Shown: positions 16,558 through 37,424 of the stretch, piece by piece | Numbering within the stretch: position 1 is the stretch's first letter | Layout of the letters: each line of letters begins with the position of its first letter | Source of the DNA: a virus | Taxonomy: Duplodnaviria > Heunggongvirae > Uroviricota > Caudoviricetes | Reading direction: 5' to 3' (one strand) | Virus record (IMG/VR): IMGVR_UViG_2721755721_000007 | DNA length: 42,037 bases | The notes under the pieces: generated by a model | Seen by the model: the letters and a program-made list of their open reading frames with translations, nothing else | Database searches by the model: none | Told to the model about the DNA's origin: nothing | Translations under genes and position numbers: made by a program

Positions 16558-17338
16558 TTACGCCAGTTGTACGGACACGAACGCATCAGGGTCAGCCAGC
16601 AGCATCAGCGGTGCTGACTGAATCATGGTGAACTCACGCGCCGGATCGCCGGTGGTCACCCAGTTTTTCGGGTAGCGGGCAGAGGCGTTAATACCTTCGC
16701 GCTGTGCGTCCGCATCCTGAATGCAGCCATAGGTGCGCAGACCGCGTGCCTGAGAGTTCCCCAGCACCATCGTGTTGTCCGGAAGGAAGTTCTTTTTGAC
16801 GTCGTTTTCCACGTACTGTCCGGAATACACGACGATCGCCGTATCGCCATACATCCCCTTATAGGACACCGCTTCGCCCAGGTCTTTTACCGCTGTCTCC
16901 AGCTCGGAATTAGAGCCGCGACGGGTATCCAGCTTCTCCTTGACGGCTTTGAAGGAACGGAACAGCGCCCAGCCTTTCGGATCAAACACGATGATATTCA
17001 CCACTCCGCTGGCGTTCAGCGCATAGGCTTCGATATCGTCGGTCGGGTCATACGTGGACTTGTCACGCTTGCTCCACTCCGTACCACCGGACTGTGTGAT
17101 GTTGTTCGCCGCACTGCGGCCCATATCCACCTCAACCGGATCGAAGGCTTCACCGGTCATGGTGTATTTGCCCTTAAGCACAGCAGAAACTGCCTGCATC
17201 TCTTCGACCTGAGCAATGGCCAGCTCTTCGTCTCGCATGTTCTGCATGATGATGCGACGGCGGCGGTAAGCCGGGTCCGCCAGATTCTGCGGATCTTCAT
17301 CCGGCAGGCGACGCAGGGTCATCTGCGGATTCACCTCA
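16558..17338 (-). pseudogene. E: 3' fragment of major capsid gene E (lambda gpE residues ~83-341), separated from its 5' part by the island
   Basis: Encodes (E)VNPQMTLRRLPDEDPQNLADPAYRRRRIIMQNMRDEELAIAQVEEM...FVSVQLA, matching lambda gpE from residue 83 to the end; no credible start or RBS (the tracked start is a GTG inside the E frame). Confidence 0.9.
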
Positions 17339-17348
17339 TGCTTCGGCT
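17339..17348. repeat. 10-bp att core / direct repeat TGCTTCGGCT (island right junction)
   Basis: Identical 10-mer at 31235-31244; flanking sequence differs, and E gene sequence resumes exactly at the repeat. Confidence 0.75.
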
Positions 17349-17482
17349 ACATGAGTCAAATATGAAAGGATGTGAATGATTTGATTACGTTTTAGCTATA
17401 GAATTGAAATGGAAAATCCTTGAATGCAATACAACGTGCAATACATGGATGAAAACCATCACTCATTTAACAAGAGGAATCT

Positions 17483-18388
17483 ATGCGCTCACCCAACAGA
17501 ATGCATGAACGCTCAACATTTTATAAGTATATGTCGTTGAATACCGCGAAGATTGTTCTTGATTCATGCAGCCTTAGATGGAGTTCTCCGGTCCTATTTA
17601 ATGACCCTTTTGATGTTCCAAGAGAAGTTATGCCTGGTATTAACGAAATTAATATTGGCAAAGCTTTAGCCCGCAAGTTAATAGCGGAGTTGATTACCCC
17701 CAGAGAAGACATACAAAATTTAAACCCTAGAATTAGAACAATGCTAAGTGATTTCCAAAAGTCATTTCCTTTAGGCATACCCGCAGGATTAATTGAAAGA
17801 TTTCAAGAAATGGTAAACATTCCACCAGTTGGGATTGGCGCTCCTGCGGCAATACAAGAAATGAAAGATGTCTGGCGAGGAATGCTTAATAACAGAAGGA
17901 TTTTGTGTTTATCTGAGAGCCCTATAATCACTCCTATGTGGAATCACTATGCCGATAAATATAAAGGTATAGTTATCGAATTGGATTGTGTAGACTTTCT
18001 GGATAGCGCTTGGTTAATAGCCAAACCTATGAAATACACAGATGAAATGCCTCTAACTCACACTGCTGAAGGGATGGCCGAGTTGCTTTTCATGCCAGAC
18101 AATAAGTCAATTGAATATATCAATAATGAGATAATATTCATAAAAACAGAAGAATGGGCATATGAAAGAGAGTGGAGAATTTCAACCTACGCTAGGCCAA
18201 ATAGCACTGGTCAATATAGCGACTTAAAATTTCACCCTTTTGAGTTAAAATCTGTAATACTTGGTCCTCTTTTTGATGCCAGCGAGTTCGATGAAGTCGC
18301 ATCACTAGTTAAAATGTATCCAAGAGCGAAATTATTTAAAAGTTCATTTGGGAACGACAGAAAAATATCCATAGTACCACTACCTTAA
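17483..18388 (+). CDS. DUF2971-like protein (301 aa), island cargo gene
   Basis: N-terminal motif FYKYMSLNTAKIVLDSCSLRWSSPVLFNDPFD resembles the DUF2971 signature as I recall it. Good RBS (GAGGA 7 nt upstream of ATG). AT-rich relative to neighbours. Function unknown. Confidence 0.6.
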   Translation: MRSPNRMHERSTFYKYMSLNTAKIVLDSCSLRWSSPVLFNDPFDVPREVMPGINEINIGKALARKLIAELITPREDIQNLNPRIRTMLSDFQKSFPLGIPAGLIERFQEMVNIPPVGIGAPAAIQEMKDVWRGMLNNRRILCLSESPIITPMWNHYADKYKGIVIELDCVDFLDSAWLIAKPMKYTDEMPLTHTAEGMAELLFMPDNKSIEYINNEIIFIKTEEWAYEREWRISTYARPNSTGQYSDLKFHPFELKSVILGPLFDASEFDEVASLVKMYPRAKLFKSSFGNDRKISIVPLP

Positions 18389-18418
18389 AAGGTCAAATGC
18401 TTTTGACAAATAAAATCT

Positions 18419-18445
18419 ATCGCCAGTTTTACTGGCGACTTTTAA
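18419..18445. terminator. Bidirectional intrinsic terminator between the convergent DUF2971 and terS-like genes
   Basis: Hairpin CGCCAG-tttta-CTGGCG flanked by A/T-rich runs on both strands. Confidence 0.45.
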
Positions 18446-18494
18446 GCAACAAAGAACCACCTAAGCACTCTTCCTACCTATGGTTTCATTTGTT

Positions 18495-19046
18495 TTAACT
18501 TCGCTGATTATCCTTGATATACCTTTCAGCCATATCTGGAATGTTATCTGAGATCTGGTAAGCTCGAATAAATGCTTTACTGACCTCCATCTTAATGAAG
18601 TCCTGATACCGTTTTTCCATGCCAGGAAACTGTCGACAGATCGCAAGTGGAAGACTATCAATGATTGCTCCAACTTCCCCAGTTAATTTCGACAAGGCAT
18701 AAGTCGCAAATGCAGTGTCAATTACCTCACCTGTTTCGCTGGCATTCTTCAGTTCCTGTGCGTCGGCCTGCGCACGCGTAAGTCGATGGCGTTCGTACTC
18801 AATAGTCCCTGGCTGGAGATCTGTCTCGCTGGCCTGCCGCAGTTCTTCAACTTCCCGGCGCAGCTTTTCGTTCTCAATTTCAGCATCCCTTTCGGCATAC
18901 CATCTTATAACGGCGGCAGAGTCATAAAGCACCTCATTACCCTTGCCACCGCCTCGCAGAACGGGCATTCCCTGTTCCTGCCAGTTCTGAATGGTACGGA
19001 TACTCGCACCGAAAATGTCAGCCAGCTGCTTTTTGTTGACTTCCAT
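18495..19046 (-). CDS. Island terminase small subunit, Nu1-like (183 aa): N-terminal ~100 aa near-identical to the prophage Nu1, C-terminal ~80 aa divergent
   Basis: MEVNKKQLADIFGASIRTIQNWQEQGMPVLRGGGKGNEVLYDSAAV... matches the prophage Nu1 (36879..37424) to about residue 100, then diverges but stays alignable. Confidence 0.85.
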   Translation of the reverse strand: MEVNKKQLADIFGASIRTIQNWQEQGMPVLRGGGKGNEVLYDSAAVIRWYAERDAEIENEKLRREVEELRQASETDLQPGTIEYERHRLTRAQADAQELKNASETGEVIDTAFATYALSKLTGEVGAIIDSLPLAICRQFPGMEKRYQDFIKMEVSKAFIRAYQISDNIPDMAERYIKDNQRS

Positions 19047-19267
19047 TGTTCATTCCACGGACAAAAACAGAGAAAGGAAACGACAGAGGCCAAAAAGCTC
19101 GCTTTCAGCACCTGTCGTTTCCTTTCTTTTCAGGGGGTATTTTAAATAAAAACATTAAGTTACGACGAAGAAGAACGGAAACGCCTTAAACCGGAAAATT
19201 TTCATAAATAGCGAAAATCCGCGCGCCTGACGCCCCGTAGCCTGTCAGATCGCCGGAAAGGACCCGC
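18739..19267. repeat. ~0.53 kb segment near-identical to the prophage nu1 5' half plus cosB (copy of 37117..37643)
   Basis: Aligns base-for-base with 37117..37643 apart from a few substitutions and a divergent cosN block. Confidence 0.85.
19060..19240. other. Island cos site: cosB-like Nu1-binding repeats identical to the prophage, cosN region altered
   Basis: R-site-like GGAAACG repeats as in lambda cosB. At the cosN position (19225-19236) the island reads cgcctgacgccc where the prophage reads aggtcgccgccc (5 of 12 differ). Confidence 0.7.
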
Positions 19268-19291
19268 CAGCCAGAGCGGGCCCTAATTTCA

Positions 19292-19675
19292 TCAACCAAT
19301 CAGCTTATAGCGACCATCCCGTGCATTGCGGCGTACACGCTCAATCTTGAGGCATAGCGCCGCATCTGGCTTTTTTGGGACAGGTACGCGGCAATATTCA
19401 GAAGCGCGAGGAATATTATTTATCCAGTCGATCACTTCACTTAAATACCAGGCCTTACGCCCTTCCGTAACCTGCACACGCTCCGGGAACTCTCCACTAG
19501 CCTCAAGGTTTAGCAGTGTACGCCGACTCAGGGTTGTAATTTCCATCACCTGATTCATATCAACAAGGCGCTCGCTTAAACACATTTTGTCAGCGATAGC
19601 TTTTAATTCCTCTACAGCTGGATTCGGGTACATCATTTCGGCAATTGGCTTAAGGTCATTGTAATCATTTTGCAT
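19292..19675 (-). CDS. AlpA/excisionase-like HTH DNA-binding protein (127 aa)
   Basis: C-terminal half MEITTLSRRTLLNLEASGEFPERVQVTEGRKAWYLSEVIDWI resembles the phage AlpA-family HTH. Confidence 0.55.
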   Translation of the reverse strand: MQNDYNDLKPIAEMMYPNPAVEELKAIADKMCLSERLVDMNQVMEITTLSRRTLLNLEASGEFPERVQVTEGRKAWYLSEVIDWINNIPRASEYCRVPVPKKPDAALCLKIERVRRNARDGRYKLIG

Positions 19676-19686
19676 TGTATCCCCCT

Positions 19687-20028
19687 TTACACACGAGCCA
19701 GCGGCTGAACAGAAATACCTGAGCCAACAAACGCTGCAATCTTTACTGACAGTTCTTTTACAGACTCAGGCCAGTTCAGAGCATCAACATTTAAGACACC
19801 TGTCTTATAGACCTGAGCCTGTGTTTTTTTCGCGGTGTCGATTTGTACAGCGGAAACATAAACCGCTTTACCTACGCTCGAACCATCCCATACCACCAGT
19901 GCACCTGTTGCATCTTCCTGCATCAGTGGCGTAAATGCAGGAATTACCCCTTTATTAGCTGAAAATATCCCCAGCGTAGTCACCAGTGCTTCAGTGCCAG
20001 CCATGAGTTCAGTGTAATGAGTAGCCAT
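19687..20028 (-). CDS. Head decoration protein, lambda gpD homologue (113 aa), island-encoded
   Basis: TPLMQEDATGALVVWDGSSVGKAV... aligns with lambda gp[28 protein letters not shown]; similar length. Confidence 0.7.
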   Translation of the reverse strand: MATHYTELMAGTEALVTTLGIFSANKGVIPAFTPLMQEDATGALVVWDGSSVGKAVYVSAVQIDTAKKTQAQVYKTGVLNVDALNWPESVKELSVKIAAFVGSGISVQPLARV

Positions 20029-20037
20029 TGCTCCCCC

Positions 20038-21078
20038 TTAGCCAATGCGAACGGTAACAAAACGATTGATGCGGGCCGGTATTGGCTGTGGTGCTGAATG
20101 TGTCTGCACATATTCAATAGCCGGATCACCAGGCACAATATAGTTTTTCGGTGCAAGTTCGGCTTTAGTCAGCCCCATTCGGATTAGCTCCGGATCCTGA
20201 ATACCGCCATAGGCGACAATCCCCTGAAGAGCCGTATTGCCAAGCACCATCAAATCAGGATCAAGGAAATGTTTTTCAGTTCCGTCCTCGTCGGTATAAC
20301 GCCCGCTGTAAACAACAATCGCAACATCGCCCATATATCCTTTAAAACTCACCGAATCACCAAGGTCTTTAAGGGCCGTTTCCAGTTCGGAATTAGAACC
20401 ACGACGGGTATCCAGAGCCTCTTTTATCGCTCTGAATGAACGGTATTTCTTCCATACATTACCGCCCATAATGATGATATTAGTGACGCCCTCACTAAAT
20501 TCTGCGTAGCTCTCAATATCATCATTTGGATCAAAAGTTTCTTTATCCTTACCTGACCACTCAGTACCGCCAGACTGAGTGATGATATTTTGTGGTTTAA
20601 TATTCCAGTCCAGCTCATAACGTTCAATACCATCGCCCTCAATGATATTTTTCCCCGTTGTGATTGCCTGAACGGCAAGCCATTCAATACGTGCACGAAT
20701 AGCTTTAGCTTGATTTACAATCGCCTGTTTAACTTTAATATTACGCGCCCCAAAAGCATTGTATTGCTCAGGTGATACACCAGCAGGGCGCACAGCTAAC
20801 TTATTTGGATCAATGCTGCTTTTCGGCTTCATATAGCCTGGACGAATTGTTTTTGATTCGTACCCTTCGTCACGTGAAACTTTACTACCCACCATAGGAG
20901 AACAAAACGCTGCAATTGGGATATTTGGATCGTCGATTGTATCAAGAATAATATCGCGCGATCCAAACATTACCGAGCGAGTAAAAAACAAACTGGTAAA
21001 CAACGCATTTAGTTGTTTTTGTACATCTACAGCATTAACCACCTGTACAAGCTGGGTAGGCGAATATAAATCAACCAT
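20038..21078 (-). CDS. Major capsid protein homologue, lambda gpE family (~346 aa), island-encoded
   Basis: About 50% identical to lambda gpE over the C-terminal two-thirds (ITQSGGTEWS..., DTRRGSNSELETA.KDLG, GDVAIVVYSG). Start taken at MVDLYSPTQ, with AAGAGG 6 nt upstream; the tracked ORF extends a further 71 codons. Confidence 0.85.
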   Translation of the reverse strand: MVDLYSPTQLVQVVNAVDVQKQLNALFTSLFFTRSVMFGSRDIILDTIDDPNIPIAAFCSPMVGSKVSRDEGYESKTIRPGYMKPKSSIDPNKLAVRPAGVSPEQYNAFGARNIKVKQAIVNQAKAIRARIEWLAVQAITTGKNIIEGDGIERYELDWNIKPQNIITQSGGTEWSGKDKETFDPNDDIESYAEFSEGVTNIIIMGGNVWKKYRSFRAIKEALDTRRGSNSELETALKDLGDSVSFKGYMGDVAIVVYSGRYTDEDGTEKHFLDPDLMVLGNTALQGIVAYGGIQDPELIRMGLTKAELAPKNYIVPGDPAIEYVQTHSAPQPIPARINRFVTVRIG

Positions 21079-21252
21079 ACGCATCCTCTTTGCATTCATT
21101 AAAAATAATTGTGGATATATGCTATCACCGATATTTGTCATGCGAACACATGCAACCGAGTGCAATGTTGTATAAAGTTTTGGGGTGACAACTTCAGTGC
21201 GGACAATTAGTGTTAATATCTTCACTCCCTTTGGTCGGGATTTATGTAGCAT

Positions 21253-21283
21253 GCCGGAAAATTTATTTTTTCCGGCTTTTTTT
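21253..21283 (+). terminator. Terminator-like hairpin oriented against the island late operon
   Basis: GCCGGAAAA-tttatt-TTTTCCGGC followed by TTTTTTT on the plus strand, in the SSB/capsid-homologue intergenic region. Confidence 0.4.
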
Positions 21284-21294
21284 ATTGGCAATAT

Positions 21295-21744
21295 TTAAAA
21301 CGGGATATCATCTCCCCATTGCTCATTATCTCCCTCTGGTGGCTGGCTTCCTTGCTGATCTGCCTGTTGTTTTGCTCTGTTCAGTGCGTCAGTAGCCTGC
21401 CCCTGTTGGCCTTTTTTGCCGCCCGGTCGCACCGATCGCGCACTGATTACGCTGTCTGCGATAACCTGCCAGCCCTGCCGCGTTTCGCCGTTCTGTCCAG
21501 TCCACTGGCTCATCTGCATGTTACCCGCCACGCTCAGGAGTTCGCCTTTGTGATGCTTTGCCAGCGCGTCGGCTTGTCTGCCAAACGCCAGGACAGATAA
21601 CCACAACGTCGCCAGACCGTCATCCGACTGACTGCAGGGCAGTGATACCGCCATACGCGCCAGCGTCATGGGGGTGCCCTTGCTGGTCTGTTTTGTCTGC
21701 GGGTCGTCCACCAACCGCCCGTAAACTGATATTTGCGCCGTCAT
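21295..21744 (-). CDS. ssb: Single-stranded DNA-binding protein (149 aa)
   Basis: OB-fold-like N-terminus, Gly/Gln-rich linker and the acidic C-terminal tail ...WGDDIPF typical of bacterial and phage SSB. Confidence 0.8.
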   Translation of the reverse strand: MTAQISVYGRLVDDPQTKQTSKGTPMTLARMAVSLPCSQSDDGLATLWLSVLAFGRQADALAKHHKGELLSVAGNMQMSQWTGQNGETRQGWQVIADSVISARSVRPGGKKGQQGQATDALNRAKQQADQQGSQPPEGDNEQWGDDIPF

Positions 21745-21998
21745 GCTGCCTGCTCTCCGGACTTAATATTGATTGTTGTCACTTCCTCCGCTTCAGCAAT
21801 CTCCCGTTCGGTCAGCGTGGCAAAGTTTGCAGCCGCCGTTGTCATGAATGCGCTTATCAGTTCGGGATGTGCTTTCGCGTATCCTTCCCCGGCGTTGCGG
21901 TCTATTGCCTTAATCGCCACCCTTAGCCAGTGTTCAGCCATATCAAGGGCGCGGTAATGTGGCTTTATATGTTTGTTCAGTTTTCCTGATGTGTGCAT
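21741..21998 (-). CDS. Hypothetical protein (85 aa)
   Basis: ORF tightly coupled to ssb (4-nt overlap); no recognised motif. Confidence 0.4.
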   Translation of the reverse strand: MHTSGKLNKHIKPHYRALDMAEHWLRVAIKAIDRNAGEGYAKAHPELISAFMTTAAANFATLTEREIAEAEEVTTINIKSGEQAA

Positions 21999-22039
21999 TT
22001 TTATTTTTACCCCCTCGTTTAAAAAGTTTTTTGTGCACC

Positions 22040-22277
22040 ACCACCTTGTCTACCTTGTCTACCTGATTAGTTATCAGGCCAGTAATGGCGCGGGTTTCAG
22101 GGAGGTAGACAGCCCCAAATAGCTGTCTACCTCATCTCTACCCGTCTCCTTACCTGTCTACAAAAATGGGTAGATAAGGTAGATAACAGGTAGACAGTGA
22201 AAAATAGTTATCTACCTGCATTAATACATTGAAATAAAAGTATTTTCTTTCAGTCAGGTAGACAAGGTAGATAACCA
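22040..22277. repeat. Iteron array, putative island replication origin
   Basis: At least 10 copies of an 8-bp GGTAGA(C/T)A motif in both orientations within ~240 bp, immediately 3' of the primase-helicase gene. Confidence 0.75.
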
Positions 22278-22287
22278 TTGCCATTTT

Positions 22288-24039
22288 TTATAAAAACGCA
22301 TCGCAATCATCAGTAGTCGTTGCGTTGGTCTGCGTGACTCCCTTAACTTTTCGCGTAATATATTCATATCCGTAAACTTTCGCCGCTGACCTCATAGCCT
22401 TTCCGAACTCATTCACGCTCAAACATTTCCCCTTTCCTGTGTATGCCATGAAGGCCATATAGACACGGTAAAGGCTGTTTCTGGTCGTGTACTTCACGGT
22501 GTCACCACCACCGCCCATCATTAGCCCACGAGCTTCCTCCAGAAACTCCAGCGCCGCGCAAAGCTCAACAACCGGATCCGTTTGCTGCTTTATTGCCAGA
22601 GCTTCATCACCGTCACGCTGTTCCAGTAATAAAGCCCGTGCCTTTTCAGGGGCAGCAAAATTAGCCAGCAAGCGGCGGATAATTACGGGGATTTCTGCCG
22701 CTATCTTTTCCGGTAATTCCTTGTCTTTTTCGTCCTCCCTTACAATGTTGTCGAACCGGAAAATCACCCGACGGCGTGACACACCTCCGGCCCGTTCGGT
22801 AAAGATCATCGGGTCGTTATTGGTTGCCAGTACCACCGCCCTTATTATCGTCGTGAATCGCTTCTCATATTTCGGGTTAATTTCAACGGGATCGCCTCCC
22901 GTGATTTTCTTGATGCCCGTGCCTTCCCCCGTATATTTCGGCTGATCGGCAAGGACGATAAGACGACTCCCGACAACCTGCGCGCGCCCTCCTGCATCAT
23001 CGAGTGATGTCATCTCCGCGCTTACGGTGTTCTGTTTGCCAGCAAGCAGGGTGGCAATATGGGTAAATGTACTCTTACCGCTTCCCCCGTCTCCGGTGGC
23101 CTCAATGAACATCTGCCAGTCGTAGCGGTTCGCCATAATCATGTATAACGCGGCACATATACGCATCATCTTACGCGGGTCTTTTCTTGCAGCATGTTCA
23201 AGCCATTTATGGAAATTTGGCGCATTATCGCGGATGTTTTCCCCTGCTACTGGTGGCGTGTACTCAATGCCATTGTGCGTGGTGCTCCAGTGCTCCGGCG
23301 AGTGCGGAGAAAATTCCCCCGTTTTCAGGTTAAGCACACCATTAGTGAACGGTAGCAAATCACCGGACGGCTCCCCCATGGGGTCGGCAATAACTTTTAA
23401 CGCTTCCACGGCGTTATTGATTACACGTTTGCTGAACGTGGCCCTGTGCTCTGAATAGATCGCCACCATTTCGCGGCTCAGCTCCATTGTGCTGACCGGA
23501 CACCATACCCCGCCGCGCCATACGTGGACGATTTCACTTTCTGCATGAACACACACACCATCAAAGCGATCGGCAAGTAGTTGTGCACGTTCACTGTCTG
23601 CCATCTGTGAAAGTTGCGCCTTTTGCTTCGTCGGAAGATTAAGCACCAGACTTTCCCCACGCTCGCATTCCTCTTTGAGTCGCGGCAACTGCTCGGATAA
23701 ATCCACTGGGCTGGTGTCAGTAATCCCCGCGTATTCGTGTACGGTCTTCACTCCAGCCACAGCCAGTAACGTAACAATCTGCGTCATGCTGTGCTCTGTG
23801 ATATGTCCTGCGCGGTAAACACGCACACACTGACGATCTTCATCAATGATCCGGTAATCGGTGATATTTTTCAGTTGCTCATCAGCCAGCACGACAGGCG
23901 GCACATCGTCGGCGGCAATATGTTTACCCGCCCATTCCCGCCACTCTTTCGCATGGCTCCACGCATCACTACCTGCAAAGATGATTACCTCTGTCAGTCT
24001 GTCGCGTGGCTGTTTTTTTAAGTTCGGTGCCAGTTTCAT
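22288..24039 (-). CDS. Primase-helicase (P4/D5-like, SF3 helicase domain), 583 aa
   Basis: Walker A GDGGSGKST and layout typical of the P4-family primase C-terminal domain; positioned as a PICI pri-rep gene next to the iterons. Confidence 0.8.
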   Translation of the reverse strand: MKLAPNLKKQPRDRLTEVIIFAGSDAWSHAKEWREWAGKHIAADDVPPVVLADEQLKNITDYRIIDEDRQCVRVYRAGHITEHSMTQIVTLLAVAGVKTVHEYAGITDTSPVDLSEQLPRLKEECERGESLVLNLPTKQKAQLSQMADSERAQLLADRFDGVCVHAESEIVHVWRGGVWCPVSTMELSREMVAIYSEHRATFSKRVINNAVEALKVIADPMGEPSGDLLPFTNGVLNLKTGEFSPHSPEHWSTTHNGIEYTPPVAGENIRDNAPNFHKWLEHAARKDPRKMMRICAALYMIMANRYDWQMFIEATGDGGSGKSTFTHIATLLAGKQNTVSAEMTSLDDAGGRAQVVGSRLIVLADQPKYTGEGTGIKKITGGDPVEINPKYEKRFTTIIRAVVLATNNDPMIFTERAGGVSRRRVIFRFDNIVREDEKDKELPEKIAAEIPVIIRRLLANFAAPEKARALLLEQRDGDEALAIKQQTDPVVELCAALEFLEEARGLMMGGGGDTVKYTTRNSLYRVYMAFMAYTGKGKCLSVNEFGKAMRSAAKVYGYEYITRKVKGVTQTNATTTDDCDAFL

Positions 24040-24335
24040 TTTTTGCCCCTGAATGCGTTAATCATGCTTTTCATTTTCTGGATGTTTCCCCGCGCTTTTT
24101 CCCTGCTGATGGGCTTACTGCGGGGTGCGGCATATACCAGGGAAAAATCACGCCGGAACTGATAAACAGGCATCACGCAGTCATAGCTATACCCCTCACG
24201 GCGGTAAGTGATGCGCCGTTCTGCCACGCCTTTAATCGTTACTGTGCCGCCGTATTTATCGCGGTAAATATCGCCGTTCATAAATTCAGGCCGAGCGGGG
24301 CCGCTGGCAATAAAGCCAGAATTTTTCATTTCCAT
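24036..24335 (-). CDS. Hypothetical protein (99 aa), translationally coupled to the primase
   Basis: ATGA overlap with the downstream primase start; no recognised motif. Confidence 0.45.
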   Translation of the reverse strand: MEMKNSGFIASGPARPEFMNGDIYRDKYGGTVTIKGVAERRITYRREGYSYDCVMPVYQFRRDFSLVYAAPRSKPISREKARGNIQKMKSMINAFRGKK

Positions 24336-24352
24336 ATTATTTATTCCTCGAC

Positions 24353-24574
24353 TTAACTCGACTTATTTGATAGCAGGGCACTATTTATTGCGTCATTGAG
24401 TTTTTCTGCTGATTCATCAATAAGTGACAACAGGCCATAAGCAATATTTGCATCTTCATTGTCATTTATGCAATCAAGCCACATATTTAATATTGCTTTT
24501 GCTGAATTATTTAAAGTTAATGAACTTTCTGCACATGCTAACAATTTAAAAAAGACTTCCCGTTCTGTATTCAT
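24353..24574 (-). CDS. Hypothetical small protein (73 aa)
   Basis: Part of a head-to-tail run of small ORFs in the island early operon; AT-rich. Confidence 0.35.
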   Translation of the reverse strand: MNTEREVFFKLLACAESSLTLNNSAKAILNMWLDCINDNEDANIAYGLLSLIDESAEKLNDAINSALLSNKSS

Positions 24575-24766
24575 TTAATCCCCCACCAGCTTACTTTCTT
24601 CCTCAATCAGGAAACTAGCGACACTTCCCGAAAGGCGCGCCAGTAGGCTCGCCAGCGCGGATATATCAGCATCTGTAATTTTGTTCGGGTATACCTCAAG
24701 AAGGCGGCAAATAATTTCTGTCTGGTGCGCACGTTCAGCGGCTTCGTGTAATGTGATTTCCTGCAT
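24575..24766 (-). CDS. Hypothetical small protein (63 aa)
   Basis: Tightly packed ORF in the same operon. Confidence 0.35.
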   Translation of the reverse strand: MQEITLHEAAERAHQTEIICRLLEVYPNKITDADISALASLLARLSGSVASFLIEEESKLVGD

Positions 24767-24951
24767 TAATGCACCTCTTTTAATTCATACACTGCTGAAA
24801 TAATGACTTGTGATAAGCCATATTCTGATGATTCGCTTCTCACCGCAGCAATAGCCGTCTGAACATTAACAGCCTTCACGTTCTGAGTGATACCAATTGT
24901 GTGGCCCAGTGGGTTAACAGCTCGGGCAAATACACGGAAGGTTTTAAGCAC
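24766..24951 (-). CDS. Hypothetical small protein (61 aa)
   Basis: Tightly packed ORF in the same operon. Confidence 0.35.
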   Translation of the reverse strand: MLKTFRVFARAVNPLGHTIGITQNVKAVNVQTAIAAVRSESSEYGLSQVIISAVYELKEVH

Positions 24952-25207
24952 GGCACACCTCCTGACGAATACGGGCGGCGAATATCATCACGTAGCCAGT
25001 TGGGGATTGCTGGCGGGCTTCCTGTTCGCTGGCGGCCTCGATGTGTATTACGCGTGGTTGTGCGGTGCTCAGGGCGATAAAACGCCAGATGTATTTATTC
25101 AGGTTGTGCGAATCCCGCCCTTGCGGGTGTGTGGTATGATTTCTCATAGCTACCTCGATACTGTTGCTATCGTTGGTGGTTAGACGCCCTGTATGTGTTG
25201 CGAGCAC
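24944..25207 (-). CDS. Hypothetical small protein (up to 87 aa; start uncertain)
   Basis: First ORF of the leftward operon, divergent from the RHH gene; an internal Met (MRNHTTHPQ...) is a possible alternative start. Confidence 0.35.
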   Translation of the reverse strand: MLATHTGRLTTNDSNSIEVAMRNHTTHPQGRDSHNLNKYIWRFIALSTAQPRVIHIEAASEQEARQQSPTGYVMIFAARIRQEVCRA

Positions 25208-25244
25208 TGCAGGGCGTTGTTATATAGCAATAAAACATGATAAG

Positions 25245-25286
25245 GTGTGTACCTATCAAGAATCATACTAAGCAATAGGTACACAC
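25245..25286. promoter_or_regulatory. Perfect 12-bp inverted repeat (GTGTGTACCTAT-N18-ATAGGTACACAC) abutting the RHH start codon; putative operator
   Basis: Read directly; arms at 25245-25256 and 25275-25286, lying in the divergent intergenic region between the early operon and the RHH gene. Confidence 0.55.
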
Positions 25287-25481
25287 ATGTCAACTATCAT
25301 TCAACGTGATAAACAACCGAAAGGTGCAGGTAAAGCACCAGCATTCCAAGTCCGTATTAACCCAGAATTAAAAGAACAAATGGTTAATGTCGCTGCCAAA
25401 GAAGGGATGAGCTTAGGTAACTGGCTAAAAGAACTGGCTCGTGCCGAACTAATAAAACAAGGAATAACACCTAAAGGCTGA
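25287..25481 (+). CDS. Small ribbon-helix-helix (CopG/Arc-like) DNA-binding protein, 64 aa
   Basis: Predicted beta-strand FQVRINPELKEQM followed by helices VNVAAKEGMSLGNWLKELARAEL; typical RHH layout. Confidence 0.6.
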   Translation: MSTIIQRDKQPKGAGKAPAFQVRINPELKEQMVNVAAKEGMSLGNWLKELARAELIKQGITPKG

Positions 25482-25504
25482 TAATTTGCATAAAGGATTC
25501 TTCT

Positions 25505-26854
25505 ATGACAACAAGTCACAAAATGCTAGAAATCAGTAAAGAACAATTTGATGTATTTTTCTATGGTCGTACACCATACGTAAAAACCTTTTCGGAGGAA
25601 ATCTGTTGGTTCAAATTTATAAAGGATGATGTCACGATCTTAGCAACAATTGTTTTTTGTAAAATAGATAATGATTACAACGCTATATTTCTAGGTAGGG
25701 ATTTAGATAAAAAATTTAGAGCGATTAAAGTAATTGTATCCCGTGAATCTAAAGATGATTTAATTACTGATATGGAAAAAGCCATACCAGAGCTATTATC
25801 ACTACACAAGAACGGTTGTTTTATACAGGGTGACGAATCAGAGTCGGCATTTTCAATATTCCTAGCCAAAGTTCCAGAACATAAAAAAAACGTTTATCTA
25901 AGAATGCTACTTGAGGAACCCAAACACTATCCTGCATTTATTGTTATGCAAGAGTTAGCTTATTGGTGTAAAGATCCTGATGGAATATTCATCAGAGATT
26001 TCCAGAGTGCTTCATTTAACTCTCGCTTATTCGAACTTTATCTAAACGCAGTTTTCTACGAAATGGATTTCGTAATATGCAGAGATTATGCTCAACCTGA
26101 TTATATTATCTCAAAAAATGGCATTGATATTGCTGTAGAAGCTGCCACAGTTGCAGAACAAGAGGAACCTACCGAGAAATTGATACTTGATCATGAGGCA
26201 GTAGAAGATCTTCAGAGATATGTAAAAGAACAAATGCCATTCAAATTTGCCCGCACTCTATTAAAGAAAGTTAGGCATAAACCTGAACCCTTAAAATTAT
26301 GCTATTGGGAACTAGATCATACAAAAGGAAAGCCTTTCATTATTGCTTTACACGATTACTCACGCAGATTTTCGATGAGTATATCAATGCCAGCACTACA
26401 AAGCTATCTGTATGGTGTAGATATGGATTCTGGAAGTAAAATTGAACAACATTTATTTGAAAATCGAAGTATACAATCTAATTTTTTCGGCTCTAATAAA
26501 AATGAGAATGTCTCAGCCATATTACTTGCGACACATGCCACCATCCCAAAATTTGATAGGATGGGAGTAGTGGCAGGGATTGAACAAAAAAATGTCAAAT
26601 CCATCGTTAGAGGTATTAAAACTGATGAAGGCTGTACCCCAATGCCTTTTACTGCTCTTGTCAATGCACCTTCATATCAAGAACCATGGTGTACAGCAAT
26701 ATACATGTTTCATAATCCGAAGGCATTAAATCCTATACGCCCTGAATTATTCCCAAGAGTTATTCATATTTTTGAAGAAGATGGAGAAATAGTTCAATAC
26801 TTACCACCTAATTATATAATCTCATCAACTACGCACGTATTTGAATTTAAGTGA
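25505..26854 (+). CDS. Orphan protein of unknown function (449 aa), co-oriented with and 24 bp downstream of the RHH gene
   Basis: Long uninterrupted ORF in a markedly AT-rich segment; no Walker A, HEPN, or other motif I can recognise. Confidence 0.6.
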   Translation: MTTSHKMLEISKEQFDVFFYGRTPYVKTFSEEICWFKFIKDDVTILATIVFCKIDNDYNAIFLGRDLDKKFRAIKVIVSRESKDDLITDMEKAIPELLSLHKNGCFIQGDESESAFSIFLAKVPEHKKNVYLRMLLEEPKHYPAFIVMQELAYWCKDPDGIFIRDFQSASFNSRLFELYLNAVFYEMDFVICRDYAQPDYIISKNGIDIAVEAATVAEQEEPTEKLILDHEAVEDLQRYVKEQMPFKFARTLLKKVRHKPEPLKLCYWELDHTKGKPFIIALHDYSRRFSMSISMPALQSYLYGVDMDSGSKIEQHLFENRSIQSNFFGSNKNENVSAILLATHATIPKFDRMGVVAGIEQKNVKSIVRGIKTDEGCTPMPFTALVNAPSYQEPWCTAIYMFHNPKALNPIRPELFPRVIHIFEEDGEIVQYLPPNYIISSTTHVFEFK

Positions 26855-26905
26855 TTTCAAATCCTATGGGTTTACCCCATAGGATTACATCCACTGTCTA
26901 AATTC

Positions 26906-27127
26906 TTACCACTCTCCCCTAATCCATGCCTGCACTTCTGAAAGACGATATGCAACAGCAGTGGAACCAATCTTGATCCGCTTAGGAAATTTTCCTTCCT
27001 TCTCCAGCTTCCAGCGTGTGCTGTTCGCAAGAGTGGTTAGCTCCCGACATTCTTTCTCACGGATCATACGATCGATATTAGGAATGTACTCCAGACCCTT
27101 TTTATCGACAATTGCCATTTTTTTCAT
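26906..27127 (-). CDS. alpA: AlpA-family transcriptional regulator (73 aa)
   Basis: MKKMAIVDKKGLEYIPNIDRMIREKECRELTTLANSTRWKLEKEGKFPKRIKIGSTAVAYRLSEVQAWI is a typical AlpA HTH. Confidence 0.8.
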   Translation of the reverse strand: MKKMAIVDKKGLEYIPNIDRMIREKECRELTTLANSTRWKLEKEGKFPKRIKIGSTAVAYRLSEVQAWIRGEW

Positions 27128-27176
27128 GTTAACCAGCCTTTTGTTTGTAAGCGACTCGTCAGAACCGTATTGATAT

Positions 27177-28748
27177 TTACTGAGAGCTCAGATCAACTTT
27201 CCAGGGCAACAGATCGCGTACCCGGTTTGCCGGCCAGTCCTGGATATGTTCAATGACGTAACGCAGCCACTTTTCTGGCTCCACATTGTTCAGACGGCAT
27301 GTGCCGATCAGCGAGTACAACACCGCCGCATGTTCACCACCGCTGTCGGAACCCGCGAACATCCAGTTTTTCCGGCCTACGGCCACTCCCCGTAAGGCGT
27401 TCTCTGCGATGTTGTTGTCGATTTCCACCCAGCCATTACTGCAGTACACGTTCAGTGCATCCCACTGTTTCAGCAGGTATGCGAACGCTTTTGCCGTATC
27501 TGAGTGACGCGACAGTGTTTTCATCTGTTGCTGTATCCAGTCATACAGTGACTGCATCAGTGGCGCGGCTCTGGCTTTTCTTGCCGCCAGACGCTGTTCT
27601 GCTGAACAGCCCCGGACCTCTGCCTCGATGGCATACAGTTCACCGATACGCTGCAGGGCTTCCGTGGTGATGTAGGTGGGCGCTCTTGCATGCACATCGT
27701 GGATTTTTCTCCGGGCATGAGCCATACACGCGGCTTCCGTTATTCTGCCGGATTCGTATAACGCCCGGTAACCACCGTAAGCATCGGCCTGAAGCACACC
27801 GCTGTAACCGGCCAGGTGATTTTGTGGATGGATACCTTTCCGGTCCGGACTGTACGCGAACCAGACCGCCGGGGGCATCTGTGAACCGGCGTTACGGTCA
27901 TCACGGACGTAGACCCACAGCCGGGCTGTCCGGGTTTTACCGCTGCCCGGCTCCTGGACCGGGACGGGGATATCATCAGCATGGACTTTACCGGGCATCA
28001 GCACATACTGGCGCAGGACGTCATACAGCGGCTCCAGCAGTTCAGCAACAGCACCTGTCCAGCGCCCCAGTGTGGCACGGCTCAGCTCCACTCCCTGACG
28101 ACGGTATATTTCTGACTGGCGGTATAACGGCAGATGGTCTGCATATTTCCCGGTGACAACATGGGCCAGAAGCCCCGCTCCGGCATAACTGCGTGCAATG
28201 GGTTTTGAAGGTACTGGTGCCTGCACGATATGGTCGCACCGGCAACAGGCCTGTTTCGGACGTTGTGTTTCGATAACCTTAAAGGCGCTGCTGATAAGCT
28301 CCAGTTGCTCTGACACATCACATCCCAGAGAACTGAGTTCACCACCACAGGCAGGACAGCATTCCTCTTCCGGCCGGATAACCCGGGTTTCACGGGGAAG
28401 TGAGGCCGGTAACGGTTTACGGGCTGAAGACTGGCGCAGGGCGGATGGCAGTACCGGGTCATATTGCTCACCCAGCGTTTCCGCCATTTCTTCCTGAAGT
28501 GCGCTGATTCGCTCCTGTGCTTCCTGTATCTGCCGTTCGGTTTTTGCACGAAGTTTTTCTGAGCTTTTACCGAACTGCATACGTTGCAGTTTCGCAACCA
28601 GCGCCTTCAGCCGGTTGATTTCGGAAGCATAAGCCGCCACCCGCTGTGAGAGCAGGCGGTTGTATTCAGCCATCTGGCGGATGGTGTCCTGTTGCGTCTG
28701 CAACAGTGCCCGCAGGCGGGCGTTCTCATGAGCAAGTGAGGTGTCCAT
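27177..28748 (-). CDS. IS66-family transposase TnpC (523 aa)
   Basis: Leucine-zipper-like N-terminus, CxxC...CxxC zinc-finger region and DDE core typical of IS66 TnpC. Confidence 0.85.
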
Positions 28749-28767
28749 ATCCTCACTTTACAACGGG

Positions 28768-29115
28768 TTATATGCGGATTCCAGCGCGTTCCGTTCGTTT
28801 CGGGTGCTTCCAGTTGATACCTTCAAGAAGCATGGATAACTGAGCCGGAGTAAGGTGCACCTTGCCGTCACGGGTGACTGGCCAGACGAAGCGGCCCCGC
28901 TCCAGGCGTTTGGTGAAGAGGCACAGTCCGTCACTGTCAGCCCACAACACTTTTATCTGGTCACCCCGGCGTCCGCGGAAGATGAACAGGTGTCCGGAGA
29001 ACGGGTCATCCTTCAGGACGTTCTGAACTTTTGATGCCAGGCCGTTAAAGCCATTTCGCATATCGGTGATACCTGCAACCAGCCAGATACGCGAACCTGC
29101 AGGGAGAGATATCAT
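28768..29115 (-). CDS. IS66-family TnpB (115 aa)
   Basis: MISLPAGSRIWLVAGITDMRNGFNGLASKVQ...HLFIFRGRRGD is the conserved IS66 Orf2. Confidence 0.85.
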   Translation of the reverse strand: MISLPAGSRIWLVAGITDMRNGFNGLASKVQNVLKDDPFSGHLFIFRGRRGDQIKVLWADSDGLCLFTKRLERGRFVWPVTRDGKVHLTPAQLSMLLEGINWKHPKRTERAGIRI

Positions 29116-29792
29116 CAGTGGCTGCTCCCTTTTATTTCGCGGATAAGTGTCTGTAATAACGCCGGCGTCAGTTTACCTTTAAGCCTGAGAGTTCCGGCCG
29201 GCAGAACCAGCTCACAACACAGACTGTCGGACGGTGTATTTATCTGCTCTGGTTCCTGTGCGGGGGCCGGGATTTTATTATCCGGCTCCGGCGTTAACGT
29301 CACGGGAAGCAGTGCCGGCATATTTTTTCCGGAAGGCAGCAGGCCACCTTTCCGGTATTGATGGCGCCAGTTGAAGAGCAGGTTATCGTTGATTCCGTTT
29401 TCCCGGGCGATCTGCGCCACACAGGCTCCGGGCTGTAGTGACTGCTCCACTAAGGCGATTTTAAACTCATAAGGGAAGTTGGGCCGCCGGGGACGTTTTT
29501 TTACCACGGGGGCTTCGGATATAACGGTGCTTTCAGGACGTACGACTGGTACCGTGGAAAATTGTCCGTAAAGGCAGGCATCAAGTTCCTGCTCCGACAT
29601 GCCTGCGGGCAAAGGCCACGAAAGGCCAGCTCTCCGAAAGCGCACGAACATACTACAAACTGTTGATTTTGGTACACTCAGGCGACGCCCGGCCACAACC
29701 CGGGGTAAATGTTCTTCAAAGTGAAGACGTAAAGCTTCAGTGATCCAGGTCCGGTGTTTCATACGATAGTGTCCATTAAAAATGATGGACAT
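29115..29792 (-). CDS. IS66-family TnpA/Orf1-like HTH protein (start uncertain; tracked ORF 225 aa)
   Basis: Contains the HTH motif PGACVAQIARENGINDNLLFNWRHQYRKGG typical of IS66 Orf1; the long N-terminal extension may not all be translated. Confidence 0.6.
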   Translation of the reverse strand: MSIIFNGHYRMKHRTWITEALRLHFEEHLPRVVAGRRLSVPKSTVCSMFVRFRRAGLSWPLPAGMSEQELDACLYGQFSTVPVVRPESTVISEAPVVKKRPRRPNFPYEFKIALVEQSLQPGACVAQIARENGINDNLLFNWRHQYRKGGLLPSGKNMPALLPVTLTPEPDNKIPAPAQEPEQINTPSDSLCCELVLPAGTLRLKGKLTPALLQTLIREIKGSSH

Positions 29793-31072
29793 TATTTTTG
29801 TAGAGCCGGAGGAAACAGACCAGACGGTTTAAATGAGCCGGTTACCTTTTGTTTGAGGATTGTCACTTTTGAATCAGCACCTGCGATGCTATTGAGATAT
29901 GTAGTCCAGAGTTCCAGAGCATCCAGTTTTTTAGCCATAAACTTACTCCGGTTGTAAACACCTGCCACGCCAGGTAGCGCATGGCCTAACAGTTGTTCTA
30001 CTACATAAAATTCAACACCGAGATCACTTAGATGAGTAGATAGCGTTCTTCTAAGGTCGTGTAGTGACCATTGTTTTTCATGGCCCAAACGTTTACCGAT
30101 TTTCCCCCCAATCTTGCTTACGCTTTCTCTAATTCGCAGACTTCCCAGCACATAACCAGTATGTTTTGTCTCTTCGTGAACATCCGTTACCCACTGTCGT
30201 AGAATTTCAGGTACTGGTCTGACGATTTCAACACCAGTTTTTGAGTGATCTTTTGGTACAGTCCAAACCCAACTTTCGAGATCCCATTCGCTCCATTCTG
30301 ATAATCGGGCTTCACTCATTCGACATCCAAATACTGTACAAAGCACAAACATTTTTCGCGTGTATTCAGACATTAGTTTTAAATCAGGCTCGACAAAAAT
30401 TGCCTTCCAGAGCTGGCCGAGTTCGGCTTCATCCAGAACCCGATCCCGCTTACCTGCAATCTGCCCCACATCACTCATGCGCAAATCCTTTAAAGCATCA
30501 CACGTCGCGTACTGGCGTACCCGACAAAAACGAAGAGCTAATTTAGTGTCAGAAAAAACATACGCCGCCATAACTGGTGCATTACGTTTAATTCGGTCAA
30601 AACAGTCCAGCCATTCATATAGGTGAGTGTCATTTACGGGCAAATGACCGATATAGGGAAAGATATGCTTTCGAAATCTGCCAAGCGTTACAGCATGAGT
30701 TTTACGACGCACCTTACAGTAATTTTCATACCAGTAATTTAGTGCATCCTCCACTGTGACCGGCTTTAAGCGTTCTTCAGCCTGAATCTTAATCTGGATA
30801 CGCGGATCACGTTTGTCAGCCAACCAACCACGGCACTCGTCGCGCTTTTCCCTTGCCTGTTTGAGTGACATATCAGGATATTTACCCAACGTTAGCCAGA
30901 CCGGAGCAGCCCGGCCACCTGCTAACCTGTAGAAGAAAACAAAGCTCACAGCCCCTTTAGTACTCACACGAATAGAAAGCCCCTTTCCATCAGCAATGGT
31001 GATCTGCTTTTCTCTGGGTTTCCCCAGATATCCTTTAAGCGCTTTGTCGCTCAGTTTGTTCTCGCCAGCCAT
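29792..31072 (-). CDS. int: P4-type tyrosine integrase; native 3' end interrupted by the IS66 at ~29846
   Basis: H-x-x-R box (HDLRRT), LLGH and a conserved Tyr in GVYNR near the C-terminus. Start taken at MAGENKLSDK. The reading frame runs into the IS, adding ~18 foreign codons. Confidence 0.85.
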   Translation of the reverse strand: MAGENKLSDKALKGYLGKPREKQITIADGKGLSIRVSTKGAVSFVFFYRLAGGRAAPVWLTLGKYPDMSLKQAREKRDECRGWLADKRDPRIQIKIQAEERLKPVTVEDALNYWYENYCKVRRKTHAVTLGRFRKHIFPYIGHLPVNDTHLYEWLDCFDRIKRNAPVMAAYVFSDTKLALRFCRVRQYATCDALKDLRMSDVGQIAGKRDRVLDEAELGQLWKAIFVEPDLKLMSEYTRKMFVLCTVFGCRMSEARLSEWSEWDLESWVWTVPKDHSKTGVEIVRPVPEILRQWVTDVHEETKHTGYVLGSLRIRESVSKIGGKIGKRLGHEKQWSLHDLRRTLSTHLSDLGVEFYVVEQLLGHALPGVAGVYNRSKFMAKKLDALELWTTYLNSIAGADSKVTILKQKVTGSFKPSGLFPPALQK

Positions 31073-31234
31073 TTTTAGCCCCAAAAAGCAATACAAGCTG
31101 CAATACAGAGATGATTGCAACACACAGATAACGAGGAAAATTCAGTGAAAGCACCAGATAAACTTATTCTTTATTATCAAAAGATTAAGTGTAAAAACCA
31201 GCAACTACACGAAAGCCTCAGAAAGCCATGCTAA

Positions 31235-31244
31235 GTGCTTCGGC
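31235..31244. repeat. 10-bp att core / direct repeat TGCTTCGGCT (island left junction)
   Basis: Identical to 17339-17348; capsid gene E sequence resumes on the far side. Confidence 0.75.
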
Positions 31245-31480
31245 TTGACATATCCCGGTGTAAATTCAGAGGTGGAGCCGCCACGGGAGCGGATAACCTC
31301 ACCGGAAACAATCGGCGAAACGTACAGCGCCATGTTTACCAGTCCCGGAATTTGTGAGAGATAGACTTTCTCCGTGGTGAAGGGATAGCTCTCACGGAAA
31401 AAGAGACGCAGAAACAGCGGATCAAACTTAAATTTCTTCTCATTTGCCGCCAGCAGCTGGGCGGTTGTGTACATCGACAT
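31235..31480 (-). pseudogene. E: 5' fragment of major capsid gene E (codons 1-82), reading into island DNA to a stop at 31205
   Basis: MSMYTTAQLLAANEKKFKFDPLFLRLFFRESYPFTTEKVYLSQIPGLVNMALYVSPIVSGEVIRSRGGSTSEFTPGYVKPKH matches the lambda gpE N-terminus, then 9 foreign codons (LAWLSEAFV). Confidence 0.9.
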
Positions 31481-31535: not shown

Positions 31536-31868
31536 TTAAACGATGCTGATTGCCGTTCCGGCAAACGCGGTCCGTTTTTTCGTCTCGTCGCTGGCAGCCT
31601 CCGGCCAGAGCACATCCTCATAACGGAACGTGCCGGACTTGTAGAACGTCAGCGTGGTGCTGGTCTGGTCAGCATCAACCGCCAGAATGCCAACGGCAGT
31701 ACCGTCGGTGGTGCCATCCCACGCAACCAGCTTACGGGTGGAGGTGTCCAGCATCAGCGGGGTCATTGCAGGCGCTTTCGCACTCAATCCGCCGGGCGCG
31801 GTTGCCGTATGTGCCGGGTCACTGTTGCCCAGCGGCTGGTAATGGGTAAAGGTTTCTTTGCTCGTCAT
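31536..31868 (-). CDS. D: Head decoration protein D (110 aa)
   Basis: [43 protein letters not shown]... matches lambda gpD. Confidence 0.9.
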
Positions 31869-36878: not shown

Positions 36879-36904
<26 letters not shown>

Positions 36905-37424
36905 TCAGCAACCCCGGTATCAGTTCATCCAGCGCGGCTGCTTTGTTCATGGCTTTGATGATATCCCGTTTCAGGAAATCAACATGTCGGTTTTCCAGTT
37001 CCGGAAAACGCCGCTGCACCGACAGGGGGATCCCGTCGAGAATACTGGCAATTTCACCTGCGATCCGCGACAACACGAAAGTACAGAATGCGGTTTCCAC
37101 CACTTCAGCGGAGTCTCTGGCATTCTTCAGTTCCTGTGCGTCGGCCTGCGCACGCGTAAGTCGATGGCGTTCGTACTCAATAGTCCCTGGCTGGAGATCT
37201 GCCTCGCTGGCCTGCCGCAGTTCTTCAACCTCCCGGCGCAGCTTTTCGTTCTCAATTTCAGCATCCCTTTCGGCATACCATTTTATGACGGCGGCAGAGT
37301 CATAAAGCACCTCATTACCCTTGCCACCGCCTCGCAGAACGGGCATTCCCTGTTCCTGCCAGTTCTGAATGGTACGGATACTCGCACCGAAAATGTCAGC
37401 CAGCTGCTTTTTGTTGACTTCCAT
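36879..37424 (-). CDS. nu1: Terminase small subunit Nu1 (181 aa)
   Basis: Matches lambda gpNu1 over its full length. Confidence 0.9.

Follow-up and report, generated by a model that had tools for sequence, protein, structure and literature searches.

A helper-embedded PICI with its own capsid and decoration genes in capsid-then-decoration order

Satellites that carry capsid or decoration genes

The founding element of the helper-embedded PICIs, 11capE (Eco567.11capE) of E. coli NRG857c, was described by Tommasini, Mageeney & Williams in 2023 (PMC10111431). It interrupts E in a lambdoid prophage, where the identity block measures 10 bp, and has its own capsid gene; 201 instances were mapped at the same insertion site (PMC10111431). 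By qPCR and deep sequencing, 42-98% of the composite copies had lost the island by precise excision, with E restored, at 2-3 h after mitomycin C (PMC10111431).

A second relative, EcCICFT073, is a stand-alone PICI that does not lie in a prophage gene and has Rpp instead of a full-length TerS. Its c1499 codes for a capsid protein and c1500 for a head decoration protein, in the same order as in the island reported here (PMC6092414) and, as here, ahead of the cos/packaging gene. When a lambda lysogen carrying EcCICFT073 was induced, every packaged DNA was phage-sized, and deletion of c1499 or c1500 did not relieve the interference with lambda (PMC6092414). In transfer by the resident prophage, the c1499 and c1500 deletions gave 3.8e3 and 8.7e3 transductants per ml, compared with 8e3, and the authors report no c1499 phenotype (PMC6092414). 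When the post-ori genes of EcCICFT073 were expressed singly from pBAD, lambda was inhibited by c1503 (rppA) only, and deletion of c1503 fully restored plaquing (PMC6739421). The crystal structure of the CFT073 capsid protein is available as PDB entry 3BQW ('putative capsid protein of prophage (E. coli CFT073)', released in 2008).

Three further systems are useful for comparison. SaPIbov5 is likewise a cos-type satellite, and its Ccm is homologous to the HK97-fold capsid protein of the helper; with Ccm the capsids are small and the helper is blocked, whereas no such effect was seen with the E. coli PICI relative, and Ccm has no sequence relationship to the island capsid protein, which has a cognate decoration protein. 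The cf-PICIs, like the island, have their own capsid protein, but carry the full set of portal, protease, connectors and terminase. In satellite P4, Psu is a satellite-coded decoration protein that stabilises the satellite particles; it decorates capsids made of helper protein, P4 not being known to have a capsid protein gene of its own, and its fold is unrelated to that of the island decoration protein.

The type of island described below, its own capsid gene and the idea of a backup copy are thus already known from publication: PICI capsid and decoration genes were reported in 2018 and helper-embedded PICIs in 2023, and a PICI capsid crystal structure has been available since 2008.

An island within the helper E gene

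The window, i.e. the whole stretch of DNA analysed (42,037 nucleotides), contains an island of 13.9 kb (17349-31235) inside the E gene of a helper prophage, at codon ~82. The GC content of the island DNA is 0.37-0.57 per kb, mostly 0.43-0.52, and that of the tail genes ~0.57. A 10-bp direct repeat, AGCCGAAGCA, is found at both island/E junctions, where this att core sits in the invariant PGYxKPK-coding segment of helper E; the island's tyrosine integrase accounts for the insertion there. The helper features that frame the island are:

36879..37424, minus strand: helper Nu1
31536..31868, minus strand: helper gpD, upstream of E' (phage-type D-then-E order)
31236..31480, minus strand: helper E', codons 1-82, frame intact up to the att core
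31236..31245, minus strand: attL core AGCCGAAGCA at the E'/island junction
17339..17348, minus strand: attR core AGCCGAAGCA at the island/'E junction
16558..17340, minus strand: helper 'E, codons 82-341, intact

When E' and 'E are joined across one copy of the repeat, an uninterrupted 341-aa gpE results. Judged by its reading frames, helper E is split and both halves are undecayed. A first reading of the window from its sequence alone (below, the sequence-only reading) had the island destroying the helper's own E; the gene is instead interrupted at the 10-bp core with its halves intact, and excision of 11capE is known to restore E (PMC10111431). The helper late operon runs on the minus strand as Nu1-A-portal-C-D-E', is interrupted by the island and continues as 'E-FI-tail genes; the island, capsid pair included, is co-oriented with it.

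Along the island, in the order of transcription, we found:

29792..31072, minus strand: island tyrosine integrase (Pfam), its last 2 aa replaced by 17 aa via an IS66 insertion
27148..29844, minus strand: IS66-family element with three ORFs, between int and the first alpA
26906..27127, minus strand: first AlpA-type HTH gene, in the integration zone
21295..24039, minus strand: replication zone (Pfam), with a D5_N/DUF5906 primase (22288-24039), an 85-aa ORF and an SSB (21295-21744)
20038..21078, minus strand: island major capsid protein, 346 aa (Pfam Phage_cap_E, E=2.1e-41)
19687..20028, minus strand: island head-decoration protein, 113 aa, gpD/SHP family (Pfam HDPD, E=4.4e-15)
19292..19675, minus strand: second AlpA-like HTH protein, 127 aa (Pfam Phage_AlpA, E=7.6e-9)
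19047..19291, minus strand: island cos region, aligned to the helper cos region
18495..19046, minus strand: Nu1-like small terminase, 183 aa, full length (Pfam Phage_Nu1, E=3.6e-84)

Transcription order thus starts with the integrase, the AlpA-type HTH gene, accessory genes on the opposite strand, small ORFs, primase and SSB, and ends with capsid, decoration, second AlpA-like gene, cos, the Nu1-like TerS and an opposite-strand DUF2971 gene. One of the accessory genes matches the PD-T7-1 defence and the DUF2971 protein is PDC-S31-like; among the small ORFs, one is DUF4222 and one Icd-like by annotation in a sister island (L001), to whose integrase that of the present island is 99.5% identical. 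The assignments to integrase, AlpA-like, primase, SSB, Nu1-like TerS and DUF2971 come from a Pfam scan of the named island ORFs; for the first AlpA ORF, the ORFs of IS66 and the small ORFs we relied on the list of ORFs and on how RefSeq annotates the sister island.

Using the helper proteins as tblastn queries, we found no match for portal or TerL up to 12 kb from the island capsid gene; the single protease match in the same range was the helper's own gene, with none inside the island, and matches for tail and FI genes were confined to helper DNA outside it. An Rfam scan of the island gave no match and no C4/isrK immunity RNA. Of the head and packaging set, the island therefore has capsid, decoration and TerS only, with no portal, protease, connectors or large terminase among its genes, which sets it apart from the cf-PICIs; that it is not self-sufficient in forming capsids had been proposed from the sequence, and both tblastn and Pfam agree. 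Its zones follow the order of the helper-embedded PICIs, namely int/AlpA, a putative Bro/accessory zone, primase/SSB and Late, without tail genes.

To place the island within this family, we compared it protein by protein with the 11capE locus of NRG857c. The identities were:

Decoration protein: 100%
Second AlpA-like protein: 100%
Integrase: 99.8%
Capsid protein: 99.4%
SSB: 95%
Primase: 48%

The two elements have the variant cosN and the att position in common (the same E codons and 10-bp block), with the att core reading AACCCAAGCA in NRG857c and AGCCGAAGCA in the window. 11capE has a 64-aa Nu1 stub and HEPN/DUF262 cargo; unlike it, the window island has a full-length Nu1-like TerS, the PDC-S31-like DUF2971 protein, PD-T7-1 and the IS66 insertion. 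These comparisons place the island in the published family of helper-embedded PICIs, within the E:Phage_cap_E_80 group. Among 5,426 complete E. coli genomes, coverage of a 201-bp probe for the E'/int junction was found in 173, and coverage of the capsid-decoration pair (over at least 80% of its length) in 395.

The capsid-decoration pair and its gene order

The sequence-only reading had described a gpE homologue of ~346 aa with about 50% identity in its C-terminal two-thirds, followed by a gpD homologue, i.e. E-then-D instead of D-then-E. Each of these points was borne out. The 346-aa protein passes the gathering score of PF03864 (142.5 bits against a cutoff of 22.9) and the decoration protein that of PF02924 (56.3 bits against 29.1). 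The capsid ATG at 21078 is preceded, 7 nt upstream, by the ribosome-binding site AAGAGGA, and the closest capsid homologues (at least 70% identity) are 346-347 aa long; because of this binding site and these lengths we take 346 aa to be the correct length. An in-frame TTG start at 21291, which would give a capsid ORF of 417 aa, was dropped, as it is the ATG that has the ribosome-binding site and a homologue-like length.

Aligned along its whole length with lambda gpE, the island capsid protein shows 42% identity (E=1e-86; 42.3% by tblastn to J02459), with only 12 gap positions. The identity to helper E is uneven: it is 28% in residues 1-141 and rises to 50% in residues 142-346. Between the island decoration protein and helper D it is 38%. 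In a PDB sequence search with the capsid protein, 3BQW came first (E=2.4e-121; the CFT073 protein is 54% identical to that of the window) and lambda gpE next (E=6e-77), while the decoration protein matched phage 21 SHP (1TD0, E=6e-16) and lambda gpD (E=1e-11), scoring closer to SHP by sequence.

The sequence-only reading had suggested structure prediction against gpE as a check. An AlphaFold2 model of the capsid protein, built on a 49-sequence alignment, had a mean pLDDT of 78.5 with a low-confidence stretch at residues 60-74, and gave a TM of 0.91 to 3BQW and of 0.87 to the lambda gpE monomer 7SJ5, a W308A mutant; the predicted fold is thus the same as that of gpE. At the position aligned with gpE W308, the satellites have Y or W and the phages W. 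The model says that the capsid protein would have an HK97-type, gpE-like fold with nothing missing, which is uninformative on capsid size. For the decoration protein, we took the sequence matches to the solved SHP and gpD structures as sufficient evidence of the fold. The island pair hence has its Pfam families and folds in common with lambda gpE/gpD and phage 21 SHP, but differs from lambda in its opposite gene order and in capsid residues 1-141, with their 28% identity to helper E.

The gene order was compared across loci by tblastn synteny. In the window, the island has the capsid gene (21078-20038) and then the decoration gene (20028-19687), whereas the helper has D and then E'. Capsid-then-decoration was found in 14/14 satellite loci (one element being seen twice), and D-then-E in 54/54 phage-type loci with an adjacent decoration gene, which are non-independent because many of them are identical lambda copies. 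The satellite loci have an int, primase and/or AlpA-like gene nearby, and any portal, protease or TerL belongs to the helper DNA around them, the one exception being a fis island with its own S49 protease; in the phage-type loci, portal, protease and TerL lie alongside wherever the fetched contig was long enough. On this synteny, capsid-then-decoration order is a trait of the Gram-negative PICI lineage, and in every locus examined it served as a simple marker separating satellite from phage copies. It does not arise by circular permutation of the lambda map, an explanation that we rejected since E-D-cos-Nu1 is not a cyclic permutation of cos-Nu1-D-E.

Clustering of the capsid proteins agrees with this division: a satellite clade, 50-100% identical to the window capsid protein and 40-47% identical to lambda gpE, is separate from a phage clade. 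Recent capture of the module from a sequenced phage was also considered and rejected, as the best of 50,697 phage records searched by tblastn was lambda E itself, at 42.3%.

The settings of the satellite loci are diverse. E. coli islands lie beside tRNA-Pro and in the clpS/cspD region; beside fis there is one Serratia and one Lelliottia island, the latter with a gpC-like S49 protease after the capsid-decoration pair. In Edwardsiella, an island within the portal gene of a prophage carries the module, as does a further island embedded in a gpA terminase gene, and a scan of genome contigs added four more loci, in Kluyvera, Superficieibacter, Cedecea and Kosakonia. What this contig scan mostly returned was phage-type E, including many lambda-identical copies in unrelated taxa that are probably contamination.

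Within the module, the gaps are 9 nt from the capsid to the decoration gene and 11 nt from there to the second AlpA-like gene, all on one strand, and the three genes form a conserved trio that is also present in the Serratia fis PICI. The late zone runs capsid, decoration, AlpA-like and then cos and the gene in the TerS position. The capsid and decoration reading frames are intact and full length in 14/14 satellite loci. For the capsid gene, pairwise Nei-Gojobori dN/dS across genera was 0.05-0.2, and for the decoration gene ~0.12-0.2, both obtained at large, saturated synonymous divergence; by this measure both genes are under purifying selection. Taken from gene content, order and conservation, the pair is shown to be a conserved late-zone capsid module of a Gram-negative helper-embedded PICI of the 11capE family.

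A metagenome scaffold (L009/P0043) carries a hybrid gene in which helper E (1-~235) is joined to the island capsid gene (~236-346). Such a hybrid was found in 0/5,426 complete E. coli genomes; because of this absence it is probably an assembly chimera, and we rejected it as a sign that the parts are exchangeable.

Possible roles of the pair

The puzzle posed by these genes is that a diverged capsid protein and its cognate cement are kept by purifying selection across genera despite deletions that gave no phenotype. Our working model, towards which we lean with some reserve, is that the pair may act as an auxiliary supply of shell protein from the satellite lineage, making normal-sized heads on helper parts, and is not Ccm-like. 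Since a scan of 17300-22400 found no promoter-like site on the minus strand (and promoter and terminator counts did not exceed those in shuffled sequence, making the scan uninformative), the expression route is one that we infer: the pair would be expressed late, by read-through of the helper late transcript while embedded and/or through an island AlpA-type regulator. The pair would yield a shell subunit of the gpE fold together with a trimeric cement of its own, and with the portal, protease/scaffold, terminase and tails of the helper these could be assembled into phage-sized heads. While E is still split, the embedded pair would be transcribed with the helper head genes, and the island capsid gene would be the only complete major capsid gene in cis until excision restores E; where helper gpE is available, the island supply would be dispensable.

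A structural role is favoured because the decoration protein co-travels with the capsid protein in every satellite locus examined, and because one fis PICI adds a gpC-like S49 protease. That a shell comes with its cognate cement is favoured because the most diverged part of the capsid protein is its N-terminal 141 residues. In the lambda capsid structure, the N-arm and E-loop, which contact the decoration protein, fall in these residues. The location of the embedded pair on the helper late-operon strand also leads us to favour the model. Because the c1499 and c1500 deletions had no effect in EcCICFT073, any structural role would be at best conditional. Two further observations run against the working model: with 28% identity over the N-terminal 141 residues of the capsid protein, its fit to the helper scaffold and portal is only putative; and plaque-forming particles were not recovered from the 11capE/50icd composite (PMC10111431).

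The sequence-only reading had instead pointed to the SaPIbov5 precedent, on which the island capsid protein would redirect assembly to small capsids, with room for a single island genome but not for that of the helper. Besides Ccm, there is Pasteurella PmCI172, which has a capsid homologue and forms small capsids (PMC6092414), and a small T number would be in keeping with a unit of 11-14 kb. However, the DNA packaged in the presence of EcCICFT073 and lambda was all phage-sized, and loss of c1499 or c1500 was without effect; the gpE alignment has few gaps and the fold is the same, and a lambda head would hold three or four island units. We now consider size redirection very improbable.

The EcCICFT073 results argue against size redirection and equally against a poison, at least for a capsid protein 54% identical to that of the window. 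A poison of helper or competitor assembly, or a bait for capsid-sensing defences, would account for a capsid gene under purifying selection though dispensable for transfer, and the island does carry defence cargo in PD-T7-1 and the PDC-S31-like DUF2971 protein. Yet of the post-ori genes expressed from pBAD it was c1503 alone that inhibited lambda, with plaquing restored by its deletion, and a co-conserved decoration protein would be needless for either poison or decoy. Such a role also strikes us as very doubtful.

Tommasini et al. raised the possibility that the capsid gene is a backup (PMC10111431). In its dedicated form, the pair would exist to replace the interrupted helper E and would supply the sole capsid protein of the lysogen, the latter point being one that the sequence-only reading also allowed. 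Helper E is indeed split by an island bearing an intact homologue on the same strand, and the IS66 element between int and alpA might impair excision. Against this, only the last 2 aa of the integrase are altered here, the E halves are undecayed and 11capE excises precisely in 42-98% of copies. Moreover, the module is also present in PICIs at chromosomal sites (fis, tRNA-Pro and clpS/cspD), and those that interrupt portal or TerL have the module but no spare of the gene that they interrupt. Because PICIs at chromosomal, portal and terminase sites all carry the pair, it is not an adaptation to the disruption of E and backup of E is not the general reason for the module; as its dedicated purpose we find it unlikely.

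It could also be that the pair is a decaying relic, i.e. captured phage genes without current function, as the absence of a phenotype in EcCICFT073 might suggest. The dN/dS of 0.05-0.2 across genera, the intact frames in all 14 loci and the presence of the pair in 395 of the 5,426 complete E. coli genomes contradict this, and we give it hardly any credence.

The cos region and small terminase bear on a further reading. A 559-bp stretch of the island is 95.7% DNA-identical to the helper cos-Nu1 region. Where an EcCICFT073-type cos PICI has rpp, there is here a full-length Nu1 homologue beside a cos-like region with a variant cosN. The island TerS is 72% identical to helper Nu1 overall, near-identical in its N-terminal ~100 aa and diverged in its C-terminal part. 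The island cosN 12-mer at 19224-19235 is the variant GGGCGTCAGGCG and that of the helper is GGGCGGCGACCT, while the segment downstream, at the position of cosB, is near-identical to the helper's.

It is conceivable, if quite unlikely in our estimate, that the embedded island runs a partly orthogonal set in cis, consisting of its own shell and cement, a chimeric TerS and the variant cosN. The chimeric TerS would combine a helper-type DNA-binding half with a divergent TerL-binding half, and the cohesive ends of the variant cosN would not anneal to helper ends. Because E is split until late excision, the first proheads would then consist of satellite capsid protein only. If true, this set would give the satellite temporal priority over the helper. 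The variant cosN GGGCGTCAGGCG is identical in three E-embedded islands with differing flanks, and the chromosomal PICIs keep the canonical cosN.

Cohesive ends and small terminase

The cohesive-end 12-mer of the island was compared with that of the helper prophage, and the two sequences differ at five positions:

19224-19235, island cosN 12-mer, GGGCGTCAGGCG
37602-37613, helper cosN 12-mer, GGGCGGCGACCT

Despite the change in cosN, the segment downstream of it at the cosB position is near-identical between island and helper. The variant cosN is common to the E-embedded islands of two further strains (the sister island L001, and 11capE in NRG857c, L010), where the flanks are unlike. Canonical cosN is retained in the chromosomal PICIs (L002-L005).

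The island also carries its own small terminase gene:

18495-19046, minus strand, full-length Nu1-like small terminase

Residues 1-100 of its product are near-identical to helper Nu1, and 559 bp of the cos-Nu1 region align between island and helper at 95.7% DNA identity. On sequence, this N-terminal likeness points to recent exchange. The C-terminal, TerL-binding part has diverged from that of helper Nu1, and overall identity is 72%. The full-length protein distinguishes this island both from 11capE, which has a 64-aa stub at the small-terminase position, and from the stand-alone E. coli PICI EcCICFT073, which has Rpp there.

Attachment core and integrase end

Both copies of the att core have the sequence AGCCGAAGCA:

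31236-31245, att core
17339-17348, att core

The core sits within the codons for PGYxKPK, a motif that is invariant, or nearly so, in both the satellite and the phage clades of gpE-family capsid proteins (alignment A2). In NRG857c the core is instead AACCCAAGCA; in each case, and at both junctions, the core has the synonymous codons of its own helper. At the homologous place, the sequence of the island capsid gene itself is AAGCCGAAAAGCAGC.

An insertion element lies at the 3' end of int:

27148-29844, minus strand like int, IS66-family element of three ORFs

The insertion replaces the final 2 aa of the int product with 17 aa, and the element lies 20 bp ahead of the start codon of the first alpA. 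Excision control may be affected by this insertion.

Capsid modules in other satellites

In more distant satellites, an ORF of 68-75 aa either runs directly up to the capsid gene or overlaps its start:

12179-12385 in L002
8789-9001 in L006
8774-9001 in L007
7721-7927 in L008

These four ORFs had no Pfam match. The 11capE-type islands lack the ORF; a non-coding gap of 216 nt, containing a hairpin, precedes their capsid gene instead. The fis-adjacent island of Lelliottia (L007, 9001-11752) has a longer module, in which an S49 (gpC-like) protease follows the capsid and decoration genes, an addition that may represent a step towards capsid autonomy.

On a metagenome scaffold (L009, 2801-4180; protein P0043), D is followed by a hybrid capsid gene and then by the island decoration gene. 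The hybrid joins residues 1-~235 of helper E to residues ~236-346 of the island capsid protein, with the junction inside a 135-bp conserved stretch. Since no such hybrid was found among 5,426 complete E. coli genomes, the hybrid gene is probably an assembly chimera.

Among the genome_contigs hits (L022-L038), short contigs assigned to unrelated taxa (Bradyrhizobium, Paenibacillus, Kitasatospora and others) also carry lambda-identical copies of the E region, most likely reflecting lambda DNA contaminating those assemblies.

Accessory genes

PADLOC models matched a protein from each of two loci on the opposite strand:

25287-26854, plus strand, accessory pair of a 64-aa ORF and a 449-aa protein
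17483-18388, plus strand, DUF2971 protein at the right end of the island

The 449-aa protein matches the PD-T7-1 model (E=1e-153). Judged by ORF sizes, the pair appears to recur (451 aa and 64 aa; L006, 2663-4235) at the equivalent place in the portal-embedded island of Edwardsiella. The DUF2971 protein matches the candidate defence family PDC-S31 (E=3e-31).
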